Assembly: GCA_026396515.1 (NCBI GenBank)
Contig: JAPLWQ010000002.1
Coordinates: 9,075 to 73,074, forward strand
Direction: 5' to 3'
Length of the DNA: 64,000 nucleotides
Source: Candidatus Magasanikiibacteriota bacterium
GTDB lineage: Bacteria > Patescibacteriota > Patescibacteriia > Magasanikbacterales > GWA2-37-8
A program made the position numbers and the translations under genes. How positions within the stretch are numbered: position 1 is the stretch's first letter; each line of letters opens with the position of its first letter. Below, in pieces: positions 11,121-63,907 of this stretch. Below the pieces are notes generated by a model. It was given only the letters and a program-made list of their open reading frames with translations. It made no database searches and was not told the origin of the DNA.

Positions 11121-11145
11121 TCTTTTTAATAAACTCATACAAATA

Positions 11146-18398: not shown

Positions 18399-18420
18399 TT
18401 TCTTCGATTACATTATATAT

Positions 18421-19122: not shown

Positions 19123-19133
19123 AATATTTGCAT

Positions 19134-21503: not shown

Positions 21504-22198
21504 ATTTTTTTAAATACTAATTCCCAGCTATAATAACCAGGTATTGGTATTCTTATCTTTCTTAATATTCTAAATAATAGATTATTATATAGTTTTCTAT
21601 TTCTAATACCCAATCTTTTTACAAAAAAATCGATAATAGGAAATCTTTCGAGAGTTTTTTTATTTTCTAATAATTTAAATTTATTACGGTCAAATAAATC
21701 CAATAATTCGCAATCTTTTTTATATTCTCTTAAATGTGTTGGGTCTAAAACCCATTTCCCATTATTTCTATAAAAATACCATCCGTACCACTTTTTAAAT
21801 ACGGTCGAAATATAGATTATCCCATCTTTTTTTACAACTCTATGGATATTGTTCATCATCTTATTGTCGTCTATGTGTTCTATTACCATGGTAGATACAA
21901 AAAAATCAATGCTATTGTTTTCAATAGTTTTCATCTCTTCTGCATTATCAACCATTGCAGTTATGCCGACGTCAATTTTGCGTACAAGATCGATTCTGTT
22001 TTTCGACAAATCTATAGCAAAAACTTTCTTATCAATCAAATATTTATTTTTAATTAAAGCACTTAACAAATTGCCATCGCCACAACCGCAATCTAAAAAA
22101 GTAGTGAAATTATGATTTAGTAAATACTTTTTTAATAATTCTGAGATGCAATCAGAATAATATTGTGGGGCAATCTTTGAATATTCTTCTATATTCAT
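21500..22198 (-). CDS. class I SAM-dependent methyltransferase
   Basis: 232 aa. FLDCGCGDGN and DFFVSTMVIEHI motifs. Confidence 0.65.
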   Translation of the reverse strand: MNIEEYSKIAPQYYSDCISELLKKYLLNHNFTTFLDCGCGDGNLLSALIKNKYLIDKKVFAIDLSKNRIDLVRKIDVGITAMVDNAEEMKTIENNSIDFFVSTMVIEHIDDNKMMNNIHRVVKKDGIIYISTVFKKWYGWYFYRNNGKWVLDPTHLREYKKDCELLDLFDRNKFKLLENKKTLERFPIIDFFVKRLGIRNRKLYNNLLFRILRKIRIPIPGYYSWELVFKKI

Positions 22199-23040: not shown

Positions 23041-23052
23041 ACTTTATAAACT

Positions 23053-26476: not shown

Positions 26477-26495
26477 TATTTAGGTAATTATAAAA

Positions 26496-26618
26496 AACTC
26501 AAACAAATTCTGCTTGAGCTTCTAGAGCTTCTGAAAATTTTTATCCCGTATATTTAATTGGTTGCAATACTACATAAAAAACCCGAACCAATTAAGGTTG
26601 CGGGCTTCAAGAGCCTCT
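26496..26618 (-). promoter_or_regulatory. upstream motif copy (26496-26532) and degenerate copy (26580-26618) 5' of the Wzx gene
   Basis: AACTCAAACAAATTCTGCTTGAGCTTCTAGAGCTTCT, and AACCCGAACCA...TTGCGGGCTTCAAGAGCCTCT. A TATAAT lies about 10 nt before the ATG at 26476 on the minus strand. Confidence 0.5.
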
Positions 26619-29523: not shown

Positions 29524-29787
29524 GCGGAAGGGGTGGGCGCTCCGGCGTTCAAACCCACCACGCGAGCCAAATTATTGGCTCGCTCTTTACACTCACTTCA
29601 TTCGCGGAAGGGGTGGGATTTGGCTTCGTCTCTCGCTTGCTTCCGCTCGCTCGGACTAGCCACCGCCTCGCGGTCGCGCTCGCCCGCCTGCGTCGCGCGA
29701 CATCGCTCCGGCGTTCAAACCCACCACGCGAGCCAAATTATTGGCTCGCTCCTTACACTCACTTCATTCGCGGAAGGGGTGGGATTT
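29524..29787. repeat. tandem partial duplications of the tRNA-Ser 3' end and its flank
   Basis: An ~82-nt unit occurs at about 29541-29622 and again at 29706-29787, where it is fused to the intact tRNA. The unit is TCCGGCGTTCAAACCCACCACGCGAGCCAAATTATTGGCTCGCTCYTTACACTCACTTCATTCGCGGAAGGGGTGGGATTTG. A third copy of the terminal GCGGAAGGGGTGGG lies at 29524-29537. The copies are separated by a 78-nt segment of about 68% GC. Confidence 0.6.
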
Positions 29788-29861
29788 GAACCCACGGTCC
29801 GGTTTAGAGCCGAACGACACGTTAGCACCGTGTTGCTTTAGACCAGCTCAGCCACCCTTCC
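29771..29861 (-). tRNA. tRNA-Ser (anticodon GCU), type II with long variable arm
   Basis: Minus-strand sequence GGAAGGGTGGCTGAGCTGGTCTAAAGCAACACGGTGCTAACGTGTCGTTCGGCTCTAAACCGGACCGTGGGTTCAAATCCCACCCCTTCCG. It folds as 7-bp acceptor, 3-bp D-stem, anticodon stem ACACG/CGTGT with loop GUGCUAA (U33, GCU, A37), 6-bp variable arm, T-arm GTGGG-TTCAAAT-CCCAC, discriminator G. CCA is not encoded. Confidence 0.8.
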
Positions 29862-31580: not shown

Positions 31581-31883
31581 GACTCCACCCCAACCCTCCT
31601 CTTATCAAGAGGAGGGAGGCAACGCTTCCTTCTCCTTTGCATCGATTAAACCTCACCCCAACCCTCTCCTTATTAAGGAGAGGGAGGTGACGCTTCCCCT
31701 CTCTTACAAAGAGAGGGGTTAGGGGAGAGTCATCAACTCCACCCCAACCCTCCTCTTGTTAAGAGGAGGGAGGCGACGCTTCCCCTCTTTTACAAAGAGA
31801 GGGGTTAGGGGAGAGTTTGTTAAGAGGAGGGAGGTGACGCTTCCCCTCTCTTACAAAGAGAGGGGTTAGGGGAGAGTCAGATG
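31581..31883. repeat. tandem array (about 3.5 units of about 80 bp) of double-hairpin palindromic elements
   Basis: Unit is CTCCACCCCAACCCTCCTCTT-NNN-AAGAGGAGGGAGGYGACGCTTCCCCTCTCTTACAAAGAGAGGGGTTAGGGGAGAGT. Each unit has two perfect 10-11-bp inverted repeats. No unique spacers, so not a CRISPR array. Lies between convergent genes 29982..31571 and 31907..32608. Confidence 0.75.
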
Positions 31884-32651: not shown

Positions 32652-33248
32652 CTATTTAACCCATTCAAATTTATCCACTAGCCAAATGCCTTTTGTTTCC
32701 ACCAGCCAAACCTTTGCCTTTTCATTCGTTTGCGTTGTGCTTGAACCCTTGGTAGTTATTCGCTGGGCAGACACTTCTACCATGGCTTTTCCGCTGGCGT
32801 ATTCAACGACATCAGACGCCACCGCATTGGTGGTTACACCGAGAAACACCGCCGGTTTGCCTGTGCCAATCTTTTTTTCAAGTTCAGACCAATAACTCAT
32901 TGTCACCAATGTCTCCACTTCGCGGATATTAGCAAAATCACTATCCGAAGAATATGTGCCATAGCGCTCGGTGAATATTTTTGCCATTTGCTTCGCCCCG
33001 TTTTTTAGCGCTTCTTCCGTAGTAAGCGGTTTCACCGGTATTCCAGTCGGTACGACAACCGGCGGCGGGGTGATCTGTACAGGAAAATTAGTTGAATCAA
33101 TCTGACCGGTCTGGTCTTCAGCCGGCGGCTGTTCAACCGGCGGCGCCGCTTTTTGGCGGACAAAAACAATAATACCGACGCTGATTCCCAGTATAATCAA
33201 AACAATCAAACTGATAAAAATAAACAGACGGGAGCGAAGTGTGGTCAT
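32652..33248 (-). CDS. bitopic membrane protein, possible VirB8-like T4SS component
   Basis: 198 aa. N-terminal TM, Pro-rich linker, about 110-aa globular C-terminal domain. The VirB8-like assignment rests on architecture and operon context only. Confidence 0.3.
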   Translation of the reverse strand: MTTLRSRLFIFISLIVLIILGISVGIIVFVRQKAAPPVEQPPAEDQTGQIDSTNFPVQITPPPVVVPTGIPVKPLTTEEALKNGAKQMAKIFTERYGTYSSDSDFANIREVETLVTMSYWSELEKKIGTGKPAVFLGVTTNAVASDVVEYASGKAMVEVSAQRITTKGSSTTQTNEKAKVWLVETKGIWLVDKFEWVK

Positions 33249-33289
33249 ATGTTTTCAAATATTTATGCTGCCGGTCCGCGCCGGCGCCA

Positions 33290-35158
33290 TTATTTATTTT
33301 CTGCAACAAATTCTTTTTTTGCTTTTTCAATGGCCAGAAGCTGTTCGGGGTTGGTAGTGACTATCTGATCTTCGGTATATGATGCCACCACTTTAATGGC
33401 GGCGTGTTTCCGGCCGGCAAAAAATATTCCTTCGCCTACTCCGGACTCAAGCAACAAATATTTTTCACTATCGGTCAATACAAATACTTTCTGAATCAGA
33501 TCAATAGACGCCGGCGACTGACGCAATAATAATTGCAGGGCCGAGTTGGTGACGATCGCCTGCCCATATTGCGATTTCAAAAAGTCGTTCACATCCTGAG
33601 TGATAGTGGTAACGCCGAGATAATATTTACGGCAGCGTTTCACCAGAGCATAAATGAAACGCGCCGAATCTTCGTGCATCATCAGCCACCAGGCCTCGTC
33701 GATCACCAATATTCTTTTCTTGCGCTCCGAGCGCACCACATTCCAAATATAGTTCACAATGGTATATATGGCAATCGGCCGAAGTTCATCTTCCAAATCC
33801 CGCACCGAATAAATGACCAGCTGATTTTTCATATCAACATTGGTCGGCGAGTTGAACAAGCCGCTGAAAGTGCCTTCAGTATATTTTTGCAATTTTAAGA
33901 CAAGCTCTTCCGACCCTTGCATTCCCTCCAATATCTCCACCAAATCCTGCATAATCGGCGGCTTAACCGTGGCCAAATCGGCATCGGGCGTAATATCCTT
34001 CTTGGCGTAGGTTTCAATCAATGCACGGTCAATAATAGCGTCTTGTTCAACGGTCAGACCGCCAAGCATGATGCGCAGGAGCCCTTTCACAGTAATAACC
34101 GCTCCGCGGATCACGTCTTCGGTGGATATTTCCATACCCATCGGCCGGGGCAGATCAAATGGATTAATTTTAGCTTCTGATGAAAGAGAAATGTTAACAT
34201 AAGTACCGCCGACAGCGTCGCTTAAATGCTTATATTCCATTTCCGGGTCGATAACAATCACATCCACGCCCATCATCATGGTACGCAGAATTTCCAGCTT
34301 AATGGCATAACTTTTCCCGGCGCCGGAAGTGGCGAACACCACCATATTGGCGTTTTGCAGGGAAAACCGTTCAAATAAAATCAAGCTGTTGTTGTGGCGG
34401 TTAATGCCGTAAAGTATGCCGTCATCAGATGTCAGCTCGGCGGATATAAAAGGAAACGACGCGGCAATCGGAGAGCTGTTCATGTTGAAGGCAACATACA
34501 ATTCATCATTACATAAAGGCAAAGTGGAATTATAGCCCTGCTCTGATTGATACAAAACCTTTCGGGTCATAATCAGCTTGCCGCCGAAAATATTTTCAAT
34601 ATCCTCGGTGGTCTGGTCCAATTCTTCTTTTTTTCGCGCATAAATTGTGGCGTAAAAACAGAATTGAAAAAAATGTTCGGTGCCCTGCGTTAAATTATCC
34701 CGCAATTGCTCAATATCGCGCAAAGCTGTTTCGCGGATCGGATCGCGCGGTGCGCCTTTTTCCGTATCGGCATTAATCTGCGCTTCCAAGGCGCCGACTT
34801 TATTTTTTAATTGTTTTAAAATGACGGCTGATTTTACCGGATAGAAAAACATGGCCAAATCCATGGTGACGGAAAGATTGATAACGGGCGAGGCCCAGCC
34901 GATGGAAATGTAGCGCGGATAGGCGGTGATAAAAAGCGTGCGGCAAAAAGCATCACCAAGCTGAACAAAACTTGACTCCACGCGAAAAGCGGAAGGCGCC
35001 ACCAAATCGCGGATGGACACCACGCCTTCACGATATATTTTTTCCTCTTCAAGCGTCACCAGCTCTTCAGATGCTTTTCTCTTAAGCTCACTGGTTTCGG
35101 TCTGCAGGCGGCTGGTGGCCTGTTTTTGTTCTTTAATCGCCGATGGTTTAAATGCCAT
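33290..35158 (-). CDS. virB4: VirB4/TrbE/CagE-family type IV secretion ATPase (C-terminal 622-aa part)
   Basis: Walker A FATSGAGKSYAI, Walker B RILVIDEAWWLM, and VirB4-type N-proximal block (LGDAFCRTLFITAYPRYISIGW). Confidence 0.75.
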   Translation of the reverse strand: MAFKPSAIKEQKQATSRLQTETSELKRKASEELVTLEEEKIYREGVVSIRDLVAPSAFRVESSFVQLGDAFCRTLFITAYPRYISIGWASPVINLSVTMDLAMFFYPVKSAVILKQLKNKVGALEAQINADTEKGAPRDPIRETALRDIEQLRDNLTQGTEHFFQFCFYATIYARKKEELDQTTEDIENIFGGKLIMTRKVLYQSEQGYNSTLPLCNDELYVAFNMNSSPIAASFPFISAELTSDDGILYGINRHNNSLILFERFSLQNANMVVFATSGAGKSYAIKLEILRTMMMGVDVIVIDPEMEYKHLSDAVGGTYVNISLSSEAKINPFDLPRPMGMEISTEDVIRGAVITVKGLLRIMLGGLTVEQDAIIDRALIETYAKKDITPDADLATVKPPIMQDLVEILEGMQGSEELVLKLQKYTEGTFSGLFNSPTNVDMKNQLVIYSVRDLEDELRPIAIYTIVNYIWNVVRSERKKRILVIDEAWWLMMHEDSARFIYALVKRCRKYYLGVTTITQDVNDFLKSQYGQAIVTNSALQLLLRQSPASIDLIQKVFVLTDSEKYLLLESGVGEGIFFAGRKHAAIKVVASYTEDQIVTTNPEQLLAIEKAKKEFVAENK

Positions 35159-35162
35159 ATTT

Positions 35163-35849
35163 TTAAGCGTTTTCCGCGTTTAATGTTTCAAGCGGAGCGA
35201 GCGGTTCTGACAAAGCGATATCCGGATTATAGGTGGTATAAAATAATTCAATCAGCGACTGCGTGTCCAGCCGCACCACTTCCAAACCCATACTGGTCAG
35301 GCCAGATTCAATCTGGCGCACGCGCATATCCAGATCATATTTTCTTTTCATAAACCTTTCTTCTTTCAGACGCACTGTGATTGCCGGATTGATAACTTCC
35401 GAAGCGCGCGACCAAAAACCGCGCTTTTTATTTGATAACGGGTCATACGGCACAATCACATAGAACAGTTTGCTCATAATCTTCCCCAAACTGACCAATT
35501 CGGAAACAAATGAGCGGTAGTCGGCAATCTGCATCCTTAATAATTCATTCGGTTGTTCGCGCTCTTTCCTCGCCAATTTTTCCAAATACGGTTTAACATT
35601 CAGCTGACGGGATTGAATAACAATCTGTAAAGGATGGTCTAAACCGTTTAAAAAAGATACATATGAAAAAACAATGGCTTGCTGTTCGTCCTCATTTTTA
35701 AGCGAAAAATTAATACTGGATACCATAAGCACAGACCGCAGGGTGCCGTCTTTCATCACAACGGTATCGTTCTTAATTTCGGCGATAGACAAATTTTTTT
35801 GCGTGGTTGGAATCGCCGCCCGTTTATTTGATGCTTTTTTATTTTTCAT
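35163..35849 (-). CDS. VirB4 N-terminal domain encoded as a separate 228-aa ORF (split or frameshifted virB4)
   Basis: IAEIKNDTVVMKDGTLRSVLMVSSINFSLKNEDEQQAIVFSYVSFLNGLDHPLQIVIQSRQ resembles the extreme N-terminal CagE/TrbE/VirB4 block. Its stop lies 4 nt from the ATG of 33290..35158, in a different frame, at an A5 run. Confidence 0.45.
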   Translation of the reverse strand: MKNKKASNKRAAIPTTQKNLSIAEIKNDTVVMKDGTLRSVLMVSSINFSLKNEDEQQAIVFSYVSFLNGLDHPLQIVIQSRQLNVKPYLEKLARKEREQPNELLRMQIADYRSFVSELVSLGKIMSKLFYVIVPYDPLSNKKRGFWSRASEVINPAITVRLKEERFMKRKYDLDMRVRQIESGLTSMGLEVVRLDTQSLIELFYTTYNPDIALSEPLAPLETLNAENA

Positions 35850-35869
35850 ACGTTCATTAAAACACTAAA

Positions 35870-36334
35870 CTAATCTTCTGCCTGATAATAACCGCCTGTA
35901 TTAACTGTTAAAGACAGATCGCGAATCCGGCTGTATGAAAGGCGCGGAATCGGTTTCGCCGCTTCCGGAATCGTTACCACGCCCTCGGCCTGAAGGCGCT
36001 TTATTTCGCCGGTGTTATAAATTTTATTCCAAATGCGCAAAGCCGGCCGGCGCAGCGTCTGTACTATGTTTAATAAAAAATAGTGGAATGCCTGCCCGTT
36101 GATTTTTACAAAGGCGATGATGAGCGAACCGCCTCCGATTACGGCGGTTAAAAAAATGAATAAAGCAAAATCGGCCAATTTGAAGGTGACAAATAATACC
36201 AGGCCGGCCACCAGCAAAATAACAAACTGCCGGGCGGTAATCGGACCGAATATTTTATCCTCCACATCAATAAATTGCGGGACAACAAATTGCGTTTGCA
36301 TAGCTATATTACAACAATTCTTTTTCCATCTCAA
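35870..36334 (-). CDS. small two-TM membrane protein, VirB3/PrgI-like candidate
   Basis: 154 aa with two hydrophobic helices, positioned directly upstream of virB4 as VirB3 homologues usually are. Confidence 0.35.
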   Translation of the reverse strand: MRWKKNCCNIAMQTQFVVPQFIDVEDKIFGPITARQFVILLVAGLVLFVTFKLADFALFIFLTAVIGGGSLIIAFVKINGQAFHYFLLNIVQTLRRPALRIWNKIYNTGEIKRLQAEGVVTIPEAAKPIPRLSYSRIRDLSLTVNTGGYYQAED

Positions 36335-37505
36335 TTATCGCCTGAATCTCGGGTATCTGTATTCTGGCGGTATCGGCCGATAATATTTCTGATAATTTTT
36401 TCTTTGTATTCAGCGCTTCGGTAACGGCTCCGGAATAATCAATAAACAGCGGGCTTCGGCGCCAGGCGGCTAAGCCGTCGAGATACCAGACATATGATTC
36501 TTCCCGCAAATTGAGAAATTTTTGTTTGAGACGAGACGCGGCTTCGGCCGGATTCGATGATAGACGGCGAAAATCGGTTAAAGACATGAACTCTATTTCA
36601 TCAATCGGGCCCAGATTTGACGGTCTTGCCGGCGTGATATCGCGGACAATCGGTCGGACCGGCGGAGCTGAAGTTTCCCTATCCTTACTAAGGAGAGGGC
36701 TGGGGTGAGGTAAACCTGTCCGCATTGTCTGTGGCGCTCTGACAAATGTATTTACCGGGGAAGATGTTGAAGGCAGGACATCTTCACTCTCTTTCATTAA
36801 TGCTGTCGGCATGCCCATTGGTTTAACCAACGGCTTGCCCACTGTTGCCGCCGGCGGAATTTCTTCTTCCAATAAAGAAGTAGCGTCATTTTTTCCAAAA
36901 CGGGCGGTAGGCGCCGGAGCCGCCGGTTTTGCCGGCATCGGAGTTTTACGATCTTCAATTATTTTCAGAACGGGAGGTACTGGTTTGGGCATCGACGGCT
37001 TAATGATTACTGCCGGTTTAATTTCAGGTTTTGACTGAACAATTTCCGCTGCCAGGGCTTTAATTCCCCCCGGATTCAAAGCAATTTTTTTGGCCGCGGC
37101 CAACTTTGGCGGTCGCGCTATTGGTTGAATTTTTGGCGGTAATACTGGCTTTGCCGGCACATTTTCTGTTTCAATGATTTCTGACGCAAGCAATTTTATG
37201 GCAGCCAAATTCGGCACGGACTTTTTTAGAACCGGTCTTGACGGCTGAACCGGCGGAGCTGATACCTCCCTCTCCTTACTAAGGAGAGGGTTGGGGTGAG
37301 GTAAGCCAGTCCGCATCGTCTGCGGAGCAGGCGCCGGTGTAACCGGGGTAATAGCCGGCTTAAGAGCGGGCGCAGGCTTATTTTTGCGCGCCTTAAAATC
37401 GGCCAAAGAAATTTTTTCAATGGTTCCGTCCGGTTTTTTAACAGTAATCATGGTGTTATCCGCCATATCAAACGCTCCATTTAAATTTATTATCCGCTTC
37501 GTCAA
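36309..37505 (-). CDS. proline-rich repeat protein of the T4SS-like operon (contains two in-frame palindromic elements)
   Basis: 398 aa, extended P/A/K-rich sequence. An internal ~30-aa duplication (QTMRTGLPHPNPLLSKEREVSAPPVQP and QTMRTGLPHPSPLLSKDRETSAPPVRP) is encoded by palindromic element copies at about 36678-36711 and 37268-37301. The true start may be MADNTMITV at about 37466, which would remove the overlap with the upstream gene. Confidence 0.45.
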   Translation of the reverse strand: MTKRIINLNGAFDMADNTMITVKKPDGTIEKISLADFKARKNKPAPALKPAITPVTPAPAPQTMRTGLPHPNPLLSKEREVSAPPVQPSRPVLKKSVPNLAAIKLLASEIIETENVPAKPVLPPKIQPIARPPKLAAAKKIALNPGGIKALAAEIVQSKPEIKPAVIIKPSMPKPVPPVLKIIEDRKTPMPAKPAAPAPTARFGKNDATSLLEEEIPPAATVGKPLVKPMGMPTALMKESEDVLPSTSSPVNTFVRAPQTMRTGLPHPSPLLSKDRETSAPPVRPIVRDITPARPSNLGPIDEIEFMSLTDFRRLSSNPAEAASRLKQKFLNLREESYVWYLDGLAAWRRSPLFIDYSGAVTEALNTKKKLSEILSADTARIQIPEIQAIIEMEKELL

Positions 37506-38583
37506 AATACATCAGTTCGGCAATTTTCTGATCATTATATTTCATTGCCGCGCTCTGCAGAGCGGTAAGCACACTGTCCAAGTCAACATACTCGCCTTGA
37601 GCATTTTTCGGAAACACGGCTTCAATTTTTTTCTTTATTTCAGCGTAAGACGGTTTAGCCGGAGCCGGCGGTTTTGGTACGGCAATAGTTTGTTCAATTT
37701 TTTTTGGCGCCTCTAATTTTGGCGGCACCGGCGCAGTTTGTTTTGTAATAACCGGTGCATTCTCCCGGGGCTTCGCATTGGTTTGCATTGCGACAGAAGA
37801 AGACCTTGTCTCAATTGGCATTTTGGGCTTTTCCACCGGAGTGGAATTGCGGACGCCTGTGACTTTTGTCGTCACGGTATCGCCACCCGGGGAATCCGGA
37901 ACAAAAGTGGACGGGTTGGTATAAACAAACACCAAGTCGGGCATCTCTTCAGCCGGTGTGTTCACAAAAAATCGCACTAATTCAACAAATTTCATCACCG
38001 CCTCATCAATTTCAACGAAAGTATATTGTTTCTGATAAATATCTTCATTTAGACCCTTGGGAAAAAACAATTTTTGCATCCGTTCATAAAATTGGGCAAG
38101 GAGCAGCGTCTCTCCTCTGCGGCTGTCAAGAAGAGCTATTTCATCAATCACATTTCTAATCGTGACATCCTGTCCGCCTAATTGTCCTATTACCCACTCG
38201 GACTTCGTGAATGAATCCTTTGCTTTGGAAAAAAATCTTTCAATTTCTTCAGGCAAAGTCATTCTCGTTTGCATATACCACATCAGCCGGTCAAACACAT
38301 CAAACCCAAGCCGGATGGCCTCCGGGGTTTGCTGCTCAATGGCTTTTTGCACGACTGCCTCTCCGGTCGTCCCAAGATACTTCCACGTTCCATACACATA
38401 CAAGCGCCAATAAGTTTTCAGGTATGGCTTAATCTCCTCGTAGCTTTTTCCATCAAAAAAATCGAATAACTCCACGCGGATAATATCCATGTTGCCGGAA
38501 TTAAAACACTGGGTCTCAAAGAAATCCTTTTCCAATTCGGAAAAGTCAATACCGGCTGATAATTTTGGATGATATGACATCAT
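37468..38583 (-). CDS. hypothetical cytoplasmic protein of the T4SS-like operon
   Basis: 371 aa, TGA stop. N-terminal globular domain and a Pro-rich segment (KPPAPAKP). No recognisable motif. Confidence 0.4.
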   Translation of the reverse strand: MMSYHPKLSAGIDFSELEKDFFETQCFNSGNMDIIRVELFDFFDGKSYEEIKPYLKTYWRLYVYGTWKYLGTTGEAVVQKAIEQQTPEAIRLGFDVFDRLMWYMQTRMTLPEEIERFFSKAKDSFTKSEWVIGQLGGQDVTIRNVIDEIALLDSRRGETLLLAQFYERMQKLFFPKGLNEDIYQKQYTFVEIDEAVMKFVELVRFFVNTPAEEMPDLVFVYTNPSTFVPDSPGGDTVTTKVTGVRNSTPVEKPKMPIETRSSSVAMQTNAKPRENAPVITKQTAPVPPKLEAPKKIEQTIAVPKPPAPAKPSYAEIKKKIEAVFPKNAQGEYVDLDSVLTALQSAAMKYNDQKIAELMYFDEADNKFKWSV

Positions 38584-38585
38584 AA

Positions 38586-43460: not shown

Positions 43461-46400
43461 CTACTGCGGTAACGGCACTACTATCACATACCCATCATAA
43501 TTTACCCATGGTTCTGACAATGTTTTATCACACTGATTCGTACTGCCACTCCCTGCCTCACTATAACACCCCGGTCCTTTAACATGGGTATTTGAAGAAT
43601 AATCACAACTTCCCGCACACCAGCCCCAATTATCCAAAACATATACGCGCGGATGGGCGACACAGACATATTCGGCTCCGTAAAAATTTTGACGAATATA
43701 GGCCCAGTCAATCCCAAGAGAAGATATCGGTATGCTACTCTCAAAACCAATGTCAACATATCCGGTAGAGGAGGATTCGACGATTCCCATTGAGCCAAAC
43801 GGGCAATTAAAGTCGGTCACAAAATCCCATGGCTTGGCTTTACAACCGGTATCGTCGGTATTCCCAAATTTTTTAATGTCGCTCGAAGTATCACCGCATG
43901 TGTAATAAGTATTTGCAGGGTCGCAATCGCCGTCACTGTTGCATGGAAATTGCGATCCCTCGTCAGTATCGTCACAAATTTTTTCCGAACACGCAAACTT
44001 ACGGTTACCAAGGGAGTCAGATATTAATGAATCAATCTGCGTATCGCCAAAAGAATCTCCTTTATCAACAACGATTCTTCTTATAGGCATCTGATTACCA
44101 TGCGCCCACGCGTAAAATTTTATATGCGCCTGCGAACCGGACATTAAATAAATATTGCCGCCGATTTTGCCATCGACTGATATTTTGTCTAATACCCAGC
44201 TGTCAGCGGATGGCGCCGCCACGCGAGGCGGATAAATATTTAAGCTTATTTCTGCTGCCCGTGTTGGATTGGCGGCATCATATGAACCACTTTTCCCATC
44301 GCCAGCGTTCTTGGCATAACCATCGAAACCGCCATCAGATGCCGAACCGTCAGCTAGCTTATCAAATTCATAAACCTTTGCAAACATAGTTCTCAGCATC
44401 GAGGCAATCGGCTTAGTTGCACTGCCTTCTATAGTGGATTGCGTATATGAAATCTTACTTTGGCAATCTGTATCGCAGATACTATCCATCATATTATCAA
44501 CCACGGTGAGCGGAACGCCGGCTTCAAATACACCGTACTTTGAGGCGGCATAACTGTATTCATCGCTCCCGGCCTGAGAAAAAACAGTATGATACTGATC
44601 GGCGACAGTAAAGGGGTTAATAAACACAGCGTTTAAATCTTCAGCTATTGGATCGGCTTCCATTAAACCATAATTTGACTCGTTAAGAGTCGGGGTCCGC
44701 ACTCTTTGTCTCGAGCTCAGGTCGTTGCCCGTTCCGTCTGTGCCCAAAGTAAGACTTGCCCCGGAAGCCAAACGGTTCGTAAATGGTTTAAAATACATTT
44801 TTCCGTTGTTCTCGTCAGCGCCGGTATCAGACACCTGAGCATATTTTTTGCACGCTCCATTGGTAAAATGAATTACAAAGAAAAATCCAATAGTATGGGC
44901 ATCTGTATTCACTTGGTTTTCAAAATTCATCCATATACCGCGTAAATTATACTGATCATCCCAGACTACACGGACAGAAATTCCCTGGTCTTCATCTTCA
45001 ACTTCCAATTGTTCTTCGCGAAACTGGTCAGTACAAACCCCATTAGTTATTAATTTGTTCTTATTTGAATTAGCCCATTGCGGTGTGGAATCTCCAGCCC
45101 AACTCTTCCATTCCCAAGCTTTGTACTGTTTACCTTCGCAAGTTGATTCCAATTCAACGGAATGATAAGAAGAATCGCCGCCGTTCATTGCCCAATTCTC
45201 TTCGGATACAAAATATCTTTCCCCTTCATCAGCGTCTGTCATATCGCTGATAAAGCTAACCCAACCTTTGCTTTTTGGCATGTAGCTGTTTTCATCAAAA
45301 TGAACGTCAATCCGTTCGATTTCTCGCCGATTTAGATATGTCGGATGGCCCGAGGAAAATAAATTTTTTCCTACATAAGCAGGCCTGGTGTCTTGAAATT
45401 GGCTGAACCCAGAATGATAAAGAACACCCCCCTCGGTTGTTCCGCAAATTGTTCTGCCAGTGGCATCATCAATTAATGTATAGTCACAATAGAACTTAAC
45501 ATCAGTATCGTACGCCAATGTACTGGCATTAAGCGGACAGAACATTCCGTGGGATTTCTTTCCCCCAGGCATGTCGAATTTAAAAAGATTTAAATCTGCT
45601 GAACTAGTAAACCCGCTCGTAGGTTGATTTACTTCCCAATCAGTACCACCGTTATTGTCATAGCAACCAGTCACCCAGGTATTATCATCAAGGCCATACA
45701 AAGCAACCCAATCATCATCTCCTTCGGGATTAATCACATTATGTTCATAATCATATATAGTGTCCGGCAAAAACATATAATAAGAGTTGTTCTTGGGCAT
45801 TGACAATGTTGCATCGTAAGCAGCTCCGTTATGACTTTTTGGAGTAAATACTGTACCAAAATGATGCAAATCTGTCGGAGGCAAATTATTCAGGCACATA
45901 AACCTGTCTTTTTTGCCTTCATTTATCTGGTAACCCGCCTTTGGATCCTGATCCCAGGAATTCGGCACACCCGGCGGCGATTCGAGCGGCCACCAAGTCA
46001 TACAGTTTGCCGTATTAGTGCCGTTGATGCGATAGGTTTCGTCGCGCTCCATACAATAGCCCATCCAGCCATTTAATATCTGGAAACTCTTTATGGTGGA
46101 GCAAGAATTTCCTTCACCACAACCTGTTGATTCCGGACCACTGCAATATAGACCGGCTTTCAGTCCGGTTGAACAAATATAGTTTCCTTCTATGGGCCGG
46201 GAAATCGGTTCATATACTTCAGCGCCATCGGTTTTAATTTTTCTATAACCGCATTCTGCCTCGCAGAGCTGTGTTTGATTGCCATTATTCGTTTTACAAA
46301 CATTTACATCTTCAAAACCGTCTTTAAATTCCAACATATCAGCATTGGAATCTTTAAAGACATAATACGGAAACGGACTCATCATTTCTGAATATGCACG

Positions 46401-49400: not shown

Positions 49401-51812
49401 TGATGCGGGAATAATATATGACAGTGGGTTTGCATTTGAATAATTGCTCGCCACTTCCTGATAGGCGGCATAGCCCACGCATTTGGCGTCGCACTGGTCG
49501 TTCCAGGTTACTTGACCGCCGGCCACCACTGCCGGCGTGAATTTGCCCGGTATTATTTCTTGCGTGAGAGCAGAGGTATATAAATTGCAGTTTTCTTCTT
49601 CAGGCAGACAGACCTGCGCATAATCATTGCATTTTCCCGCGTCTGCCGGGCGCAGTAAATTTAAGTCCGCGAGATTTTTCGGCCAACTGACGCCGTCAAT
49701 TAAACGCGCAAATGTCTGAATATATTTATTTGGTAAAGTGGTGGCGTCGGCATCATAGCAAAAAAGATAATTCGGCGCTTTTTTAAGATAGATTAATGTT
49801 TCAGAATCAGATGCCACTTTGAAAGCGCTGCAACCGTCATCGGTTGTCTTACAAGTTGTGGCTTTTTTGTTAAACGAAATGCTGGTGTTGGTGAAACTAT
49901 TTGACGAGGTGCTGATCACGGGCAAATACCAATCAGTGGTTGTGGGGGTAAAATAGTGCCTCGCGGTTATATAGTGGGTGCAACCATCATTTTCGGCATT
50001 GCATTGTTCAGTATCGAGCGTGCGGGTTAAATACCCTATTGTGTCGCCCGCTGAATTGGTAAACGCCCGGCAAGTGTTATATTGCGCGTCGCAATAATCG
50101 GCCTTGAATTTCCAAATCGGCTTCTCTCTTAAACAATACCCCCAGCTTGAGCAAGAACCATCTTTATTAAAACCAACGCAATGCTGAATGTCAGCGCAGG
50201 TTTGTAAACGCACGCCATCAGCGGAGATGGCACTATAGACAAACGATTTGCACCGCATCTTTGGAAGTTTGATCACCCAGTGCGGGTTGATAAGATGATA
50301 ATAAAGAGAACCCTCAGTGTAGTAGTTATCAACAACCTCTTTCAGAGTTACTGGGTTTTCTTGCGGCGAGCTATAGGCGGCAATTTCAAAACCAAGCGGC
50401 AAGACGCGCGCTAATCGCAAATAGCGGATATTGCGATGACAGTACGCCGATTGCGAACAGTCAAATTTTTGATTATTGGCAGCGTCTGATTCGGGAATCA
50501 ATTTCCAATCACCGTGCAAAAACCCGCGCTCCATCGCCTGTTTGATAGTGAACGGTTCGCCGGTGTTGGCTTGCTGGAGAATCTGCATGAATGACTGGTC
50601 AACAATGCAGGCCTCAGGCGACAAATTGTCTTCCGAGCATTCAGCCATGTTCGGAGAAATATCATAATTATCCAAAGTTGTAATTTTCGGTTTTAGCAGT
50701 TCGCTGAACATTTCCTGAGCCGCGCGGCGGTTGCCGGTGCCGGCGCTGCCGGATGAATAGTAACTCGTTGCCATGCTTTCGGCAGAATTATCATCTTCGC
50801 ATTGATCCCAACCAACGCCGGAAATGCTTAAACCCGGGTTACACACCTTCGCGCCACCCGGCAGCATACCTTTGGTAATAAAGTTATTAATGACCGTACC
50901 AAGCAAAGTATTTACAAAAGTGCTGACTGTGTTTAGAGCCAGGCTGGCGCCTCCTTTTTCCAAAGCTGCAGCCGTCATTGTCAATTGACTCGCCTTTTCT
51001 TCTCTTGTTTTATTTGCTGCCGATTGTGCGGTAAATTCTTCACGCATTACAGTGGCCGGAGCGATATTCTTGCGTGAAATAATTTCAGTCATAGCAAAAA
51101 TGCCGCTGCCTTCTTCACGGTCAAGCTGGGCACCGGCTGTTGTTTCGGCGGCCATAGTATCCATTTTTTCTTTTCCGGAAAACCAAACGCCAAAATCACT
51201 GTCTTCTACCTGCACACCCATACCAAGACGGCTGGTTAACCCTTCCACTGAAGCATATTTGCTCCGAATATTTTCAACATTATATGCGCTCTTCAGTTGC
51301 TGCCAAGTACAACGTGGTGTGGGCGGGCCGTAATTAAAATGGAAGCCAAGCTTTAACATCAAATCAAGTCGCAGGTCGGGCAAATTACACAAATCTAGGC
51401 CGAGATCCTCGCTTAGAGTGGCAAGCGCTTCACCAAGCGCGTCGCCGGCTGTTTGCGCCAGGTAATTGCCAAAACTCTCTTGGCTGGCAAACGGGCCTTG
51501 ACCAAAATCGCCGGCAGCCAAATACACGGCCATGTCATAAGCGATTTTATTTGTAAAATAGTTCAAGCCGTTCATTATGGCAGACATTACCATCAAGAGG
51601 CCTTCGGTTTTGATTTTTTCTAACAGCGTTTTTTCCTTTTCACCGGCTGTTTGTTGAAGAGTCCAAGGTTTAAAATAACCAGCCCATCCCACATAATCAT
51701 GATATTGCGCTTTAGCAGGTGTTGGATAAAGCAATATTAAGCCAAAAATAAAAGTGAAGACAATGCTTGCAAGCACTGCTCCCAGTCCGAATTTTTTAGA
51801 TTTGGAAATCAT
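43461..51812 (-). CDS. giant cysteine-rich secreted/surface protein
   Basis: 2,783 aa (about 8.35 kb). N-terminal signal/anchor (LGAVLASIVFTFIFGLILLYPTPAKA). Hundreds of Cys in repeated CxxC/C...C patterns. A segment resembling a carbohydrate-binding beta-sandwich (ISNWSGSAGSVSVATS ... ILSFWAKGN). Starts 7 nt after the upstream gene; TAG stop. Confidence 0.6.
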   Translation of the reverse strand: MISKSKKFGLGAVLASIVFTFIFGLILLYPTPAKAQYHDYVGWAGYFKPWTLQQTAGEKEKTLLEKIKTEGLLMVMSAIMNGLNYFTNKIAYDMAVYLAAGDFGQGPFASQESFGNYLAQTAGDALGEALATLSEDLGLDLCNLPDLRLDLMLKLGFHFNYGPPTPRCTWQQLKSAYNVENIRSKYASVEGLTSRLGMGVQVEDSDFGVWFSGKEKMDTMAAETTAGAQLDREEGSGIFAMTEIISRKNIAPATVMREEFTAQSAANKTREEKASQLTMTAAALEKGGASLALNTVSTFVNTLLGTVINNFITKGMLPGGAKVCNPGLSISGVGWDQCEDDNSAESMATSYYSSGSAGTGNRRAAQEMFSELLKPKITTLDNYDISPNMAECSEDNLSPEACIVDQSFMQILQQANTGEPFTIKQAMERGFLHGDWKLIPESDAANNQKFDCSQSAYCHRNIRYLRLARVLPLGFEIAAYSSPQENPVTLKEVVDNYYTEGSLYYHLINPHWVIKLPKMRCKSFVYSAISADGVRLQTCADIQHCVGFNKDGSCSSWGYCLREKPIWKFKADYCDAQYNTCRAFTNSAGDTIGYLTRTLDTEQCNAENDGCTHYITARHYFTPTTTDWYLPVISTSSNSFTNTSISFNKKATTCKTTDDGCSAFKVASDSETLIYLKKAPNYLFCYDADATTLPNKYIQTFARLIDGVSWPKNLADLNLLRPADAGKCNDYAQVCLPEEENCNLYTSALTQEIIPGKFTPAVVAGGQVTWNDQCDAKCVGYAAYQEVASNYSNANPLSYIIPASGKSCGAADAGCSAFTNLTTDQGGLEQTEYFSYLRLCMLPDANKQKNFYVYESSETSGYQLKTYTFEKDASGGPKQIFHDTNELALYESEASPCNSISYLAGTANPDCHQFNDDSTNTYYAMLSKTVIVSDQCTPYRLNSPELVSGFSPTDLRCPYDFEPTSVGKRAGDAIELKENSCYYMGFTGNTNGAGDAQSCTKEAESCRAYKGNAGNNVRSLASDSFESTISNWSGSAGSVSVATSTESTQLGGHSLKISANVSSGGKVAIRTGFNIQQDKSYILSFWAKGNLSLDDIQIGEESGEASAYFSGPVTVSDVWRYYSFGPVEYNGPANTGKLRFLISLTGGETKLMYIDNVNLKEVTDYIYLVKNSLSVDPICDSNLSDNLPGEALSCMAYVDPAKNTYYLTNFSYLCREEAVGCTALLDTQNTPEQPLASAYNVWLKGESGTVAEITIEGTKFSCQVPVGKDGCYTNILGINDLENLYDLQGSDITLTNSTIIIPPDTPTTSPIYLVASKDVTCKAENMGCQVLGKGKFSPSGNTFTTAFGSATHYEVFEDTAVKNDPALYDTSLCRAEEIGCKSWKSGESVYYFKDPVQNGKLICKYVEPSAISYTTPAFNFPNPFGGPDIVIPEMEHNFSFGGWVWKDVGICTGGGKLCMSDSDCGEGKTCLFKNQVPCASDYSSATDGYGLWSNGNVGKYKGFVGECPVEQNGCTEFVDHSSATDEKKCALSGKKCENNSDCSEESEEDICIVNSANAYYLLDNTNLSEQMSLCNGQVSAAEGCVLIDNTNQPTKMYNTALTNQESLDKKEALVNPVASSTANDANIIIKVIHDRVCGEWAYCDLKQEFEDEETGEASSRCFHLGVCNKAGAVDAVAGKVVKDCAETVPLWTTKGQILSAALYRSVFNAWNSLDFSGYSTYGFYQVPDLTARKVGDTFRMVYVNTQYSFYGGGGSGTECIKPTATDNHNGDSCGTTAYSGHCYNGECLRSWAGYYPEYSSSLGCRAYSEMMSPFPYYVFKDSNADMLEFKDGFEDVNVCKTNNGNQTQLCEAECGYRKIKTDGAEVYEPISRPIEGNYICSTGLKAGLYCSGPESTGCGEGNSCSTIKSFQILNGWMGYCMERDETYRINGTNTANCMTWWPLESPPGVPNSWDQDPKAGYQINEGKKDRFMCLNNLPPTDLHHFGTVFTPKSHNGAAYDATLSMPKNNSYYMFLPDTIYDYEHNVINPEGDDDWVALYGLDDNTWVTGCYDNNGGTDWEVNQPTSGFTSSADLNLFKFDMPGGKKSHGMFCPLNASTLAYDTDVKFYCDYTLIDDATGRTICGTTEGGVLYHSGFSQFQDTRPAYVGKNLFSSGHPTYLNRREIERIDVHFDENSYMPKSKGWVSFISDMTDADEGERYFVSEENWAMNGGDSSYHSVELESTCEGKQYKAWEWKSWAGDSTPQWANSNKNKLITNGVCTDQFREEQLEVEDEDQGISVRVVWDDQYNLRGIWMNFENQVNTDAHTIGFFFVIHFTNGACKKYAQVSDTGADENNGKMYFKPFTNRLASGASLTLGTDGTGNDLSSRQRVRTPTLNESNYGLMEADPIAEDLNAVFINPFTVADQYHTVFSQAGSDEYSYAASKYGVFEAGVPLTVVDNMMDSICDTDCQSKISYTQSTIEGSATKPIASMLRTMFAKVYEFDKLADGSASDGGFDGYAKNAGDGKSGSYDAANPTRAAEISLNIYPPRVAAPSADSWVLDKISVDGKIGGNIYLMSGSQAHIKFYAWAHGNQMPIRRIVVDKGDSFGDTQIDSLISDSLGNRKFACSEKICDDTDEGSQFPCNSDGDCDPANTYYTCGDTSSDIKKFGNTDDTGCKAKPWDFVTDFNCPFGSMGIVESSSTGYVDIGFESSIPISSLGIDWAYIRQNFYGAEYVCVAHPRVYVLDNWGWCAGSCDYSSNTHVKGPGCYSEAGSGSTNQCDKTLSEPWVNYDGYVIVVPLPQ

Positions 51813-51818
51813 AAGCTG

Positions 51819-52649
51819 TTATTTCTTTTTTCCGGACATTATTTCATTGATAAATTGAGCCGTAGCCGTAGTATTGGCCGTATTTGTGGCCGTAGTGATG
51901 GAGCTCATTATCGTACTGGAAGAAAATATTTCCGTTGCCATTTTTATTAAATCATCATCGGATATTTTATCAAGCACTGATTGTTCAACTCCTGCCTCGA
52001 GAAGTATTAGGCGCACCTGTTCAGGGCTGGAAATAAGCTCTTCAAGAGAGGTGACGGCAGTCATGTCGCCGGCCGGCGTACTGGAAGAAAAAATTTCAGC
52101 CGCCATCTGAACCAATTCTTCATCTGATATTTTATCAATCACGGATTGCTCAACGCCTGCGTTGAGCAGTACGGTGCGCATCTGTTCCGGACTGGAAACA
52201 AGCTCTTCAATCGTGGTCGGCATTTTGTAATCGAACAAAGTTGGCAGATCGGGTTTGCCGGCAACGGTTGAAGCACTCTCTCCTACGTTGCCAATACAAT
52301 TTTTTCCTTCAGCGCAATTCGGATTTTTCCCCTGGTCAATTTCTTGTTTATCTGTCAACCCATCGGAATCGGAATCTGCCAAATACGGGCTGGTGGTAAA
52401 AATATACAATTCATCATAGTCACTTAAGCCATCCATATCGGTATCGCGGTAGCGCAGTGCTTCTGGAGTGTTCACTTCCTGGCCGATCATCGGCGGAATG
52501 GATGTGTTCAGAGCGAACGGGCTGTATAGAGTATTGCGCATTTGGATCAAGCCGAGCGTAACTGCGAGCAAAACAAAAGCTGACAGCAAAACCAAACCGA
52601 TCTTCTGTTCTTTGGACAGTCGTAACTTTTCATCAGCCATATATACCAC
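51819..52649 (-). CDS. membrane-anchored protein with thrombospondin-type-3-like Ca-binding repeats and a duplicated C-terminal module
   Basis: 276 aa. N-terminal TM. DTDMDGLSDYDELY ... DSDSDGLTDKQEIDQG (DxDxDGxxDxxE repeats). Two copies of an ~45-aa module. Putative promoter TTGGCT-16-TGATATAAT about 40-70 nt upstream. Confidence 0.5.
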   Translation of the reverse strand: MVYMADEKLRLSKEQKIGLVLLSAFVLLAVTLGLIQMRNTLYSPFALNTSIPPMIGQEVNTPEALRYRDTDMDGLSDYDELYIFTTSPYLADSDSDGLTDKQEIDQGKNPNCAEGKNCIGNVGESASTVAGKPDLPTLFDYKMPTTIEELVSSPEQMRTVLLNAGVEQSVIDKISDEELVQMAAEIFSSSTPAGDMTAVTSLEELISSPEQVRLILLEAGVEQSVLDKISDDDLIKMATEIFSSSTIMSSITTATNTANTTATAQFINEIMSGKKK

Positions 52650-52756
52650 TGCGGTTTGAACCGCCGGGTGTTAAACCCAATTATATACAATATTATTATA
52701 TCACAATAAAGCCGTTAGCCAAATACTTTGATAGTGGATAAGATTCGGGATAAAGC

Positions 52757-55282: not shown

Positions 55283-57013
55283 CTATTTATTTAACCCTGC
55301 GTCAGTGTACCGGTTTGAAGCATTCCACAGGAGCCAACCGGCAGATGAATATTTTTCCGCTACAGCAATCTGCGCCCGAATTTTTTCCGCGTCATAAACC
55401 GCGCCCAAATTAAAGGCCTGGAGCCACGGCCTCACTTTTGCTCTGTGCCCCTCAACTTTCGGCATGCCTTTTTCAAAACCGTTTTCAAACACAAGTGCCG
55501 GATACTCAGCCGGATTAGCCAACCCTAAATGTCCGGCCGGATAGTGCGACGGATACATCATTGGGCAGACATAGTCGGCGTTCTCCACCGTGTCGGCCAG
55601 GCGCTGGCCGATATTCATGTCATCCTCGCCATTTTTTTCCATAACAAAGCCAAAAAGGTCGAGTGACAGCCAGACCGGTTCAGCCGATAAACGACGGCTC
55701 ATAAACCTGTAAAACTCACCCATTATTTCATATTTTTTGCTATCACCAACCGTATAAACCACCTCGCTCATATTGCCATCGGAAGGAAAACGGACATAGT
55801 CAAAATTTATTTCATCAAAACCGAATTTGATCGCTTCTTTCGCAACCGCCAGATTATATTCCCAAACTTCTTTGCGCGTCGGGTCCACCCAGGCCAGACC
55901 TTTTTTATCGCGCCACACGCCGCCGCTTTTTTTCTTTATCGCCCACTCCGGTTTTTTTTCCGCCAGTACCGGATCCTGAAAAATTGTCTGGCGGGCAATC
56001 ACATATATTCTGTTGTCATGCAATTTATTTATGAGCGCGCGCACATCACCCAGACGATCATCCTTTGTACCCAATTCATTCACCAGTGAAAGCTGGCTGT
56101 CATAAAGAATCAAACCGCTGTAATCTTTTATATCAATTACTACAGCATTAAGTTCCGTTCGCCTGATTAAATCTATTATCTCATTAATTTTAGCCACGCT
56201 GCCCGCGGAATAGGCGGTAAGATATAGGCCTTTCACTGTTTTTAGCGGATTTTTCGCGCCTCTTTCATAGCGCGGTTCAAAAAAAGAAATAACGAGACGG
56301 GTATTATTTTCTATATCAATAACGGCTGCGCGCCAAAAATATACGATTGCTATGGAGGCGGCTATGGCAACAGCGATGATAAAAAAATATTGCAGCCAAT
56401 TTTTTTTCTTTTTTATTTTTTCAACAACCAACGCACCCTGGCGCAAAATTTTTAATTCACCCTCAGTCGCGCTGACTATTGTGGTCGGCGGATTATATGG
56501 CAGAGTGCCGGCATCAACAATCGCGTCCGGAATATGTTCCCGGCCGGTAAATTGACCCTCCACTACCCGCGCATCGTATACATCTCCGGTACCGGAAATA
56601 TTAGCCGAAGTTGCGATAATCGGCCGGCCGACTTTTTGGCAAAGTTCTTTAAGCCAAGGGTCGGCAGGAACGCGTATGGCTATTGTATTATCTTTTGCCG
56701 CCACGCCTTGGGCTGAGTCGCTTCCTTTATACTGCCCGACAATCGTCAGCGGTCCGGGCCAATAATTGCGCGCCAATTCATTTATTAAATTATTCCACAC
56801 CAAATATTTTTTAGCGGTTGCCGTATCGGGCACGATGATAAGCAAGGGGTTATTGCTCGGCCGATTTTTTATGGCAAAAATTCTATCAACCGCTTGCTGG
56901 TTTGTCGCGTCACAGCCCAAACCGTATGATGTTTCCGTGGGTAAAATAACAATATTGCCGCCCAAAAGTAAGGCGGCAATTTCCGGCATATTTTCTTTTC
57001 TTAATCGGAACAT
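55283..57013 (-). CDS. TsaC/YrdC (threonylcarbamoyl-AMP synthase) domain fused via a TM helix to a glycoside-hydrolase-like TIM-barrel domain
   Basis: N-terminal residues 1-200 have YrdC/Sua5 motifs (ILPTETSYGLGCDATN, RIFAIKNRP, IIATSANISG). One TM helix (LQYFFIIAVAIAASIAIVYFW). C-terminal ~350 aa resemble GHL10/GHL15-type putative glycosidases (EINFDYVRFPSDG). Confidence 0.55.
   Translation of the reverse strand: MFRLRKENMPEIAALLLGGNIVILPTETSYGLGCDATNQQAVDRIFAIKNRPSNNPLLIIVPDTATAKKYLVWNNLINELARNYWPGPLTIVGQYKGSDSAQGVAAKDNTIAIRVPADPWLKELCQKVGRPIIATSANISGTGDVYDARVVEGQFTGREHIPDAIVDAGTLPYNPPTTIVSATEGELKILRQGALVVEKIKKKKNWLQYFFIIAVAIAASIAIVYFWRAAVIDIENNTRLVISFFEPRYERGAKNPLKTVKGLYLTAYSAGSVAKINEIIDLIRRTELNAVVIDIKDYSGLILYDSQLSLVNELGTKDDRLGDVRALINKLHDNRIYVIARQTIFQDPVLAEKKPEWAIKKKSGGVWRDKKGLAWVDPTRKEVWEYNLAVAKEAIKFGFDEINFDYVRFPSDGNMSEVVYTVGDSKKYEIMGEFYRFMSRRLSAEPVWLSLDLFGFVMEKNGEDDMNIGQRLADTVENADYVCPMMYPSHYPAGHLGLANPAEYPALVFENGFEKGMPKVEGHRAKVRPWLQAFNLGAVYDAEKIRAQIAVAEKYSSAGWLLWNASNRYTDAGLNK

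Positions 57014-61609: not shown

Positions 61610-63907
<2,298 letters not shown>

Follow-up and report, generated by a model that had tools for sequence, protein, structure and literature searches.

The general idea of big, cysteine-rich surface proteins serving attachment has already been put forward for the candidate phyla radiation (CPR). Large extracellular proteins of this kind, which vary between strains and for which a role in attachment was proposed, were described in Peribacteria in 2016 (Anantharaman et al., PMC4736985), and the Absconditicoccaceae are reported to have very large surface proteins that carry adhesion domains (PMC13059738). Epibiotic growth of Saccharibacteria requires a type IV secretion system (T4SS) and also several envelope proteins bearing lectin, dockerin, or FN3 domains, and these envelope proteins were proposed to target host glycans (PMC10633639). 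Gram-positive-type T4SSs depend on surface adhesins, and no PrgB-like adhesin was found next to the T4SSs of Patescibacteria (PMC12102498). In this work, a 64,000-nt stretch of DNA from a Candidatus Magasanikiibacteriota bacterium (assembly GCA_026396515.1, contig JAPLWQ010000002.1, positions 9,075 to 73,074; hereafter, the window) was analyzed with a focus on one gene pair, encoding a giant protein of 2,783 amino acids (aa) with a signal peptide and a small membrane protein with predicted TSP3 calcium-binding loops. The pair is interpreted, with moderate confidence, as a surface module for recognition or adhesion that is specific to the lineage of Candidatus Magasanikbacteria.

The giant resembles the Peribacteria and Absconditicoccaceae proteins in its CPR origin, signal peptide, very large size, Cys enrichment, and lack of functional annotation. 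According to their descriptions, those proteins occur in multi-copy clusters, contain about 7% Cys, and in some cases carry FG-GAP/integrin or other adhesion domains, whereas the giant is a single orthologue of fixed architecture with 3.6% Cys, an obligatory TSP3 partner, and a recombining cassette. Its size is shared with the Bap, SiiE, LapA, and RTX adhesins, and the partner motif DTDxDGxxDxDExxxYxTSP matches the Ca-binding region of Bap (7c7u). These adhesins are Ca2+-dependent chains of tandem immunoglobulin (Ig)-like repeats, exported by type I secretion systems (T1SS) or anchored by sortase, and essentially Cys-free. In contrast, the giant has a Sec signal and no tandem domain repeats; a Pfam scan gave no RTX match, and neither LPXTG nor a T1SS C-terminal signal was found. 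Compared with known giant adhesins, the distinguishing features are its non-repetitive build, about 50 predicted disulfides, a dedicated TSP3 partner, and an internal recombining cassette between conserved flanks. Like the PrgB-type adhesins of MPF-FATA systems, the giant is encoded beside a PrgH/PrgI/PrgJ-like T4SS gene set; homology to PrgB or Ig-like homology and a position within the T4SS operon were not found. By analogy, it would fill the adhesin role reported missing in Patescibacteria (PMC12102498). A conserved scaffold with a hypervariable, indel-rich, recombining distal segment is reminiscent of phage tail fibres, pilus tip adhesins, and mosaic surface antigens; in the giant, however, conservation of the extreme C-terminus makes the variable segment internal instead of terminal, and there is no homology to the phage proteins of PHROGs.

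The coordinates of the giant open reading frame (ORF) given in the preliminary description are right (Table 1). Its ATG lies 6 nt past the stop codon (TAA) of the small partner gene. The signal peptide was also confirmed: the hydropathy plot has a single hydrophobic segment at the N-terminus (aa 10-28), followed by a PxPAxA↓Q site that occurs family-wide, with A35 at least 90% conserved, and cleavage probably takes place after this residue. The C-terminus reads ...YDGYVIVVPLPQ, without LPXTG. The database already contains the identical protein, annotated as "carbohydrate binding domain-containing protein", in a metagenome-assembled genome (MAG) of Candidatus Magasanikbacteria.

Instead of the hundreds of cysteines previously mentioned, the giant contains 100 (3.6%). 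They do recur at regular spacings: the giant has 13 C-x6-C elements versus 3.5 ± 1.8 in shuffled sequences (maximum 11 in 2,000 shuffles), and GC..[FYWL] is present eight times versus 1.5. The C-x6-C element is usually preceded by a beta-strand-like YYL/YL stretch and followed two residues later by an aromatic residue. Three quarters of the cysteines (75 of 100) are at least 90% conserved in an alignment of 23 sequences reaching down to 28% identity. The Cys count ranges from 94 to 140 among 138 distinct full-length homologues, of which 123 have an even number (binomial P = 1.4e-22, indicative only, since the homologues are related to each other). An even count maintained over such a range implies that cysteines are gained and lost pairwise and that essentially all of them are disulfide-bonded, which would amount to about 50 bonds in the giant. 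Together with the signal peptide, this signature places the mature giant outside the cytoplasm.

The region of aa 1981-2520 forms a hypervariable cassette of 335-816 aa across the family. Between the giant and its closest relative (L004), identity is 73.5% over aa 1-1978 and 38.7% over aa 2004-2753. In all pairs of the 63 full-length homologues, aa 1981-2520 are always far more divergent than the rest, for example, with identities of 0.49 where the rest has 0.67-0.85 and 0.75 where the rest has 0.95-0.97. Breakpoints were located by aligning the codons of two closely related pairs (L067/L071 and L027/L051), each of which gave a clean pairwise alignment. For L067/L071, aa 1-2040 are 86-99% identical (mostly 93-99%) with synonymous divergence (dS) of 0.04-0.26, aa 2041-2695 are 43-67% identical with dS of 0.6-1.1, and the final ~120 aa are 97% identical with dS of 0.07. 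For L027/L051, identity is 64-88% and dS 0.5-1.2 from aa ~1921 to the end. The dS values thus jump 4-10 fold at sharp breakpoints, from about 0.1-0.25 to 0.6-1.1, and then return to the baseline. The ratio of nonsynonymous to synonymous divergence (dN/dS) inside the variable segment stays below 1 (0.13-0.65). As dS rises along with dN while dN/dS is below 1, the cassette has a history different from that of its flanks; the codon alignments indicate that it was replaced by recombination between close relatives and is not merely faster-evolving. For the same reason, positive selection as the sole cause of hypervariability is ruled out. Hypervariation driven by a diversity-generating retroelement was rejected, as no template repeat or silent copy in the 64-kb window pairs with 43461-45872; no reverse transcriptase domain was detected among the window ORFs scanned, which were part of the total. 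A polymorphic toxin of the Rhs type was also rejected, because the variable segment is followed by ~260 conserved aa at the C-terminus and no Rhs or toxin matches were obtained; the gene downstream of the giant, where an immunity gene would be expected, is convergent and encodes a lipoprotein. In L004 (10001-18364), the giant gene is frameshifted near aa 1998, where the variable cassette begins; this could be a sequencing error, in an assembly perhaps made from long reads, rather than a pseudogene.

The small adjoining membrane protein was correctly described as carrying calcium-binding repeats and an internal duplication, represented by one transmembrane (TM) helix, two predicted loops, and a 141-nt direct repeat. 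Based on orthologue comparison, the true start of its gene is likely the ATG at 52640, giving 273 aa. The protein has a positive-inside topology with an extracellular Cys pair (C112 and C118), which is invariant, as are D69, D71, D73, D77, E80, D92, and D100. The match of the window protein to TSP3_bac (PF18884) is borderline (24.9 bits, cut-off 25); this model is matched by 42 of the 56 partner orthologues (best E = 4e-10). The best match in the PDB is the Bap Ca-binding region (7c7u, E = 0.005). The loops are about 23 aa apart with a helix after each, which is only reminiscent of a dockerin; Dockerin_1 is matched by none of the 56 orthologues, and a cohesin was seen only as an insignificant Foldseek match (5lxv, probability 0.04). 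Most orthologues have about 215 aa and a single C-terminal helical module of ~45 aa; the duplication, which yields two copies of this module, is private to this genome. Homologue synteny, proposed as a check in the preliminary description, was compared across 80 related loci. Of the 73 loci with at least 1 kb of upstream sequence, 69 have the small gene immediately before the giant, a count that includes six loci in which the giant ORF start was over-called (63 uncorrected), and the gap is typically 0-15 nt (median about 6 nt). The four exceptions (L002, L022, L048, and L050) form one subclade.

The giant family is broad and seems to occur throughout Magasanikbacteria. Homologues were obtained as 26 + 17 clusters, nearly all of 2,500-3,200 aa and aligning end to end. 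A scan of one genome per GTDB species gave 438 matching stretches, from which 78 loci were kept, belonging to Magasanikbacteria or loosely labelled Patescibacteria MAGs; most of them span residues 1-2780. An exhaustive hidden Markov model (HMM) search with a profile of aa 36-1010 returned 1,534 clusters (50% identity) at E <= 1e-3 and 1,195 at E <= 1e-30. In nearly all of the top 150 matches, the region has the same N-terminal place in giants of similar length, and the shorter entries among the matches are probably fragments. The literature on Magasanikbacteria yielded nothing relevant on Cys-rich proteins, T4SS, or a host, and about 90% of the protein length is covered by no Pfam or NCBIfam model; the family therefore appears to be undescribed.

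The domain map (Table 1) was drawn from family conservation, AlphaFold2 (AF2) models of two tiles built on alignments of about 40 sequences each, and profile self-comparison. Tile 1 had a mean predicted local distance difference test (pLDDT) score of 60.6 and a predicted template modelling (pTM) score of 0.32; the values for tile 2, the C-terminal 1,200 aa, were 64.8 and 0.64, which suggests packed domains in this part. The previously noticed lectin or carbohydrate-binding module (CBM)-like segment was identified at aa 1022-1124 as CBM_4_9 (PF02018; 32.7 bits, gathering cut-off 25.9, E = 1e-7). The family profile matched the CBM4 of a laminarinase in the PDB (1gui, E = 7e-7) as well as other solved modules of the CBM4 and CBM22 kind, among them 2zey, and several homologues carry a precomputed CBM_4_9 match. 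Unlike the CBM4, CBM9, and CBM22 modules of glycoside hydrolases, which it resembles, the segment of aa ~1011-1160 has no recognised catalytic domain attached. Besides CBM4/9, only generic Ig/PKD/CBM-like sandwich(es) were seen, and the remainder of the giant matched no family or solved fold. In the segment of aa 377-555, N461 and E476 are invariant and D405 and R466 near-invariant; its model comprises a predicted helical subdomain and a beta-hairpin, and no sequence or fold match was obtained, including with a dedicated profile of 78 sequences. In agreement with the preliminary description, which saw no obvious enzymatic motif, searches against Pfam, NCBIfam, PHROGs, and PDB sequence profiles pointed to no enzyme family; NCBIfam and PHROGs gave no match at all. 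All-against-all hhalign comparison of 38 family-profile tiles revealed no tandem domain repeats, the self-matches being short C-x6-C hairpins only (<=58 columns, probability <=77%).

Table 1. Features of the giant gene, its partner, and the adjacent genes (positions in the window; -, reverse strand; +, forward strand;., both strands)
Feature	Position	Strand	Description
Giant ORF	43461..51812	-	2,783 aa, ATG start
Giant aa 1-35, signal peptide	51708..51812	-	Hydrophobic core aa 10-28, predicted cleavage AKA↓Q
Giant aa 36-376	50685..51707	-	Conserved, few Cys; low-confidence predicted long helices (AF2 tile 1, pLDDT <50)
Giant aa 377-555	50148..50684	-	Most conserved segment; motif ARILPLGFEIAA; pLDDT 80-90
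Giant aa 556-1010	48783..50147	-	First Cys-rich beta region; repeated C-x6-C-x2-aromatic hairpins
Giant aa 1011-1160	48333..48782	-	CBM4/9-type beta-sandwich, predicted carbohydrate-binding
Giant aa 1161-1980	45873..48332	-	Second Cys-rich region; C-x6-C hairpins and small acidic 4-Cys knots, e.g., CTGGGKLCMSDSDCGEGKTC
Giant aa 1981-2520	44253..45872	-	Hypervariable, indel-rich cassette; beta-rich core
Giant aa 2521-2783	43464..44252	-	Conserved beta-sandwich and Cys-rich end with DNWGWC motif; pLDDT 80-92; no LPXTG, no C-terminal TM
Small partner gene	51819..52649	-	276 aa from GTG; type II single-pass membrane protein
Small partner, TM segment	52545-52601	-	One TM helix
Small partner, TSP3 loops	52341-52445	-	Two predicted Ca2+-binding loops, DxDxDGxxDxxE
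Small partner, internal direct duplication	51912..52217	-	141 nt, 51912-52052 and 52077-52217, 79% identity
Promoter-like site (candidate)	52695..52722	-	TTGGCT-16 nt-TATAAT, upstream TG; consensus scan, 10/12 positions
Intrinsic-terminator-like hairpin, bidirectional	43381..43413	.	15-bp stem flanked by A and T runs; between giant stop and convergent lipoprotein gene
Convergent lipoprotein gene	42666..43229	+	187 aa, acidic, long D/T/S repeat, Cys-containing C-terminal domain
Gram-positive-type T4SS cluster	32652..41555	-	Transcription unit separate from giant
VirB6-like protein, extended (p989)	38586-41555	-	7-8 TM; weak CD3337/EF1877 match
p371, p398, p198	within 32652..41555	-	T4SS cluster members
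PrgI/VirB3	35870-36334	-	PrgI E = 3.5e-9
TrsD/TraC-like VirB4 N-terminal part	35163-35849	-	NCBIfam; 228 aa
VirB4 ATPase	33290-35158	-	P-loop_TraG E = 1e-29; 622 aa

The small gene and the giant are best read as a bicistronic unit of their own, because a promoter-like site precedes them and the giant is followed by a terminator and then by a convergent gene. The promoter-like site is located some 55 nt ahead of the small gene's likely ATG, inside a 107-nt gap past the gene for a GT-C glycosyltransferase, and it is a candidate only, since such sites in the region do not exceed the shuffle expectation. Glycosylation of the giant through this GT-C neighbour, as previously suggested, was not borne out: the GT-C gene stands beside the pair in one of the 80 other loci (L009, there between the two genes), and a functional link was rejected on the basis of synteny. 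A homologue of the convergent lipoprotein gene occupies the same position in L001 and L004, and L002 has a lipoprotein of similar composition at this place; the lipoprotein may thus belong to the module as its third component. Few ORFs are present in the 1.1 kb from the lipoprotein gene to the VirB6-like gene, one being a 70-aa coiled-coil ORF (41832-42044, -) with a palindromic repeat element close by (42494-42593).

The T4SS cluster combines PrgI/VirB3, TrsD-like, VirB4, and VirB6-like proteins, and no relaxase or coupling protein was found among the window ORFs scanned; its composition is MPF-FATA-like, and the same arrangement was described for Patescibacteria (PMC12102498). TrbL/VirB6 is matched by three of the 33 orthologues of p989. 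As also described for Patescibacteria, VirB4 is split (33290-35849, -) into a 228-aa TrsD/TraC-like protein and a 622-aa P-loop ATPase. GyrB at 61643-63907 fits the reported location of Patescibacteria T4SS clusters near the replication origin. Two in-frame 87-nt copies (36651-36737 and 37242-37328) of a palindrome-bearing repeat that also occurs between genes of the window lie inside p398 (ORF 36309-37505, -) and translate as APQTMRTGLPHPxPLLSK[ED]RExSAPPV in a Pro-rich linker; neither insertion is present in the orthologue from L001. Across the related loci, the VirB6-like gene is downstream of the giant in 34 of 51 and within about 10 kb in 37 of 51, and PrgI/VirB4 are near the giant in 23 of 43. 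In the subclade of L002, L022, L048, and L050, the VirB6-like gene and p371 are directly upstream of the giant, replacing the TSP3 partner (~5400-9950 in L002), with no PrgI/VirB4 nearby; the rearrangement keeps the VirB6-like gene and p371 linked to the giant. The RF1-Sua5-KsgA genes upstream are as constant as the partner gene. Hence, the earlier proposed link to the T4SS holds in so far as the cluster is often nearby; the two are separate transcription units, and their adjacency is less conserved than that of ksgA, a housekeeping gene unrelated to the giant.

From these data, the following mode of action is proposed. The giant would be exported by Sec, with its signal peptide cut after A35, and, once outside, would fold into a protein of some 300 kDa with many domains, no tandem repeats, and ~50 disulfides. 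The conserved N-terminal two-thirds would serve as a scaffold bearing the predicted sugar-binding CBM4/9 sandwich, while the cassette of aa ~1981-2520, exchanged between lineages by recombination, would be the likely determinant of ligand specificity. The small partner is predicted to be anchored N-in/C-out by its TM helix, exposing the two TSP3 loops and the helical module outside. As the giant has no LPXTG, SLH (S-layer homology), or C-terminal TM segment, the partner would retain it and most likely tethers, docks, or helps assemble it at the surface. The module would recognise or attach to the glycans or proteins of another cell's surface, which fits a presumed episymbiosis, and may bring the neighbouring MPF-FATA-like T4SS into contact with the target cell. 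The adhesin-like surface role of the preliminary description is the best remaining reading, whereas its glycosylated fibre found no support; a fibre is doubtful given the lack of tandem repeats and the pTM of tile 2. More speculatively, and improbably in our estimation, the pair may be a host-range determinant: a giant, non-repetitive receptor-binding protein of a new class, with ~50 disulfides and mostly unseen folds, docked in a Ca2+-dependent manner through TSP3, with a swapped ~500-aa cassette, acting as the 'missing adhesin' that couples the T4SS to the target cell.

The sequence data establish the integrity of the gene, the breadth of its family, the export signal, the TSP3 loops and the CBM, the disulfide signature, the conserved pairing of the two genes, and the recombination of the cassette; retention at the surface, docking by the partner, adhesion, and any joint action with the T4SS are inferences. 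Several points weigh against the assignment to adhesion. Surface localisation and adhesion were deduced by bioinformatics, the retention mechanism is a guess since no known cell-wall anchor is present, and no host of Magasanikbacteria was found in the literature. About one third of either AF2 model has a pLDDT below 50. The most conserved segment, aa 377-555 with its invariant N461 and E476, has no assigned role, and CBMs are mostly appended to enzymes. A recombining cassette would fit evasion of phages or predators equally well. Synteny with the T4SS is weak evidence, because the gene neighbourhood is generally conserved in the lineage, and the terminator and the convergent lipoprotein gene part the giant from the T4SS genes.

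Among the alternatives, the one that survives best, itself rather unlikely, is a structural envelope or coat protein similar to an S-layer, the CBM of which binds the cell's own glycopolymer and the cassette of which is the exposed face escaping phages or predators. It would agree with the constant architecture, the apparently lineage-wide occurrence and fixed chromosomal place of the gene among housekeeping genes, the packed domains suggested for tile 2, the heavy disulfide stapling, which suits a protective layer, and the glycopolymer biosynthesis island within the same window. However, Pfam and NCBIfam scans revealed neither an SLH domain nor any other signature of an S-layer, there is no sign of self-assembly, and the constant Ca-binding membrane partner and the frequent T4SS neighbourhood would be left unexplained. 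There is a slim chance that the giant is a secreted enzyme degrading polysaccharides or cell walls, targeted by its CBM and feeding on or breaching the host envelope. Its catalytic domain would have a new fold. In its favour, CBM4/9 modules are typically parts of glycoside hydrolases, the most conserved segment has the invariant or near-invariant polar residues N461, E476, D405, and R466, and a VirB1 hydrolase can rarely be recognised in the T4SS clusters of Patescibacteria (PMC12102498). Comparably improbable is that the giant belongs to the neighbouring T4SS, either as a substrate or as an integral part of it outside the cell, such as a wall-crossing conduit or tip. The VirB6-like gene within about 10 kb in most loci and the rearranged subclade, where this gene and p371 moved next to the giant while PrgI/VirB4 are not nearby, speak for it, whereas a Sec signal peptide speaks against a T4SS substrate, the giant belongs to a separate transcription unit with a convergent gene between, 20 of 43 loci have no PrgI/VirB4 within about 10 kb, and patescibacterial T4SSs outside the lineage work without such a protein (PMC12102498). 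An artefact, whether a spurious ORF or several genes fused during assembly, can practically be dismissed, having nothing in its favour but the L004/P0002 frameshift, which shows that long genes are easily broken in assemblies, and being rejected by the same full-length architecture found independently in hundreds of assemblies from different studies and by purifying selection over the whole gene (dN/dS 0.05-0.2 outside the variable part). Neither assembly fusion nor a known enzyme family, the two objections foreseen in the preliminary description, was therefore encountered.

Other features were observed in the window. Palindrome-bearing repeats of about 45-87 nt with the core CCCTCTCCTTAnnAAGGAGAGGG are present in intergenic DNA (31582-31883, 42494-42593, and 23852-23899). 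An 85-nt direct duplication with 99% identity (29538-29622 and 29704-29788), the second copy of which overlaps the 3' end of tRNA-Ser(GCT) (29770-29861, -), could be an att-like scar of integration or excision. The low-GC island at ~15500-26500 (about 30-37% versus about 45% elsewhere) contains envelope glycopolymer biosynthesis genes, encoding an AftD-like GT-C (958 aa), a TagF-like glycerophosphotransferase, two methyltransferases, two GT2, one GT4, and a Wzx-like flippase; its composition suggests horizontal acquisition. A 576-aa ORF (55283-57013, -) fuses Sua5/YrdC (t6A synthesis) to a DUF4015 putative glycosyl-hydrolase, which are encoded by separate adjacent genes in L001. The 270-aa protein encoded at 10506-11318 (-) combines a DUF5018-like domain with a type I dockerin and is a further candidate for a component of surface assembly.

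Patescibacteria account for a large share of bacterial diversity, and how they find and hold their partners is scarcely known outside Saccharibacteria. The giant family provides a testable handle on partner recognition in this group. Its conserved scaffold could serve to detect Magasanikbacteria, and cassette types could be compared with the hosts that occur alongside them. In the obligatory Ca-binding partner, there is a hint of the way in which a monoderm lacking sortase motifs might keep a 300-kDa protein at its surface. The even-Cys-count signature and the dS breakpoints are simple tests that can be reused on other uncharacterised giant proteins. If the pair were a host-range determinant, the finding would gain substantially in interest.

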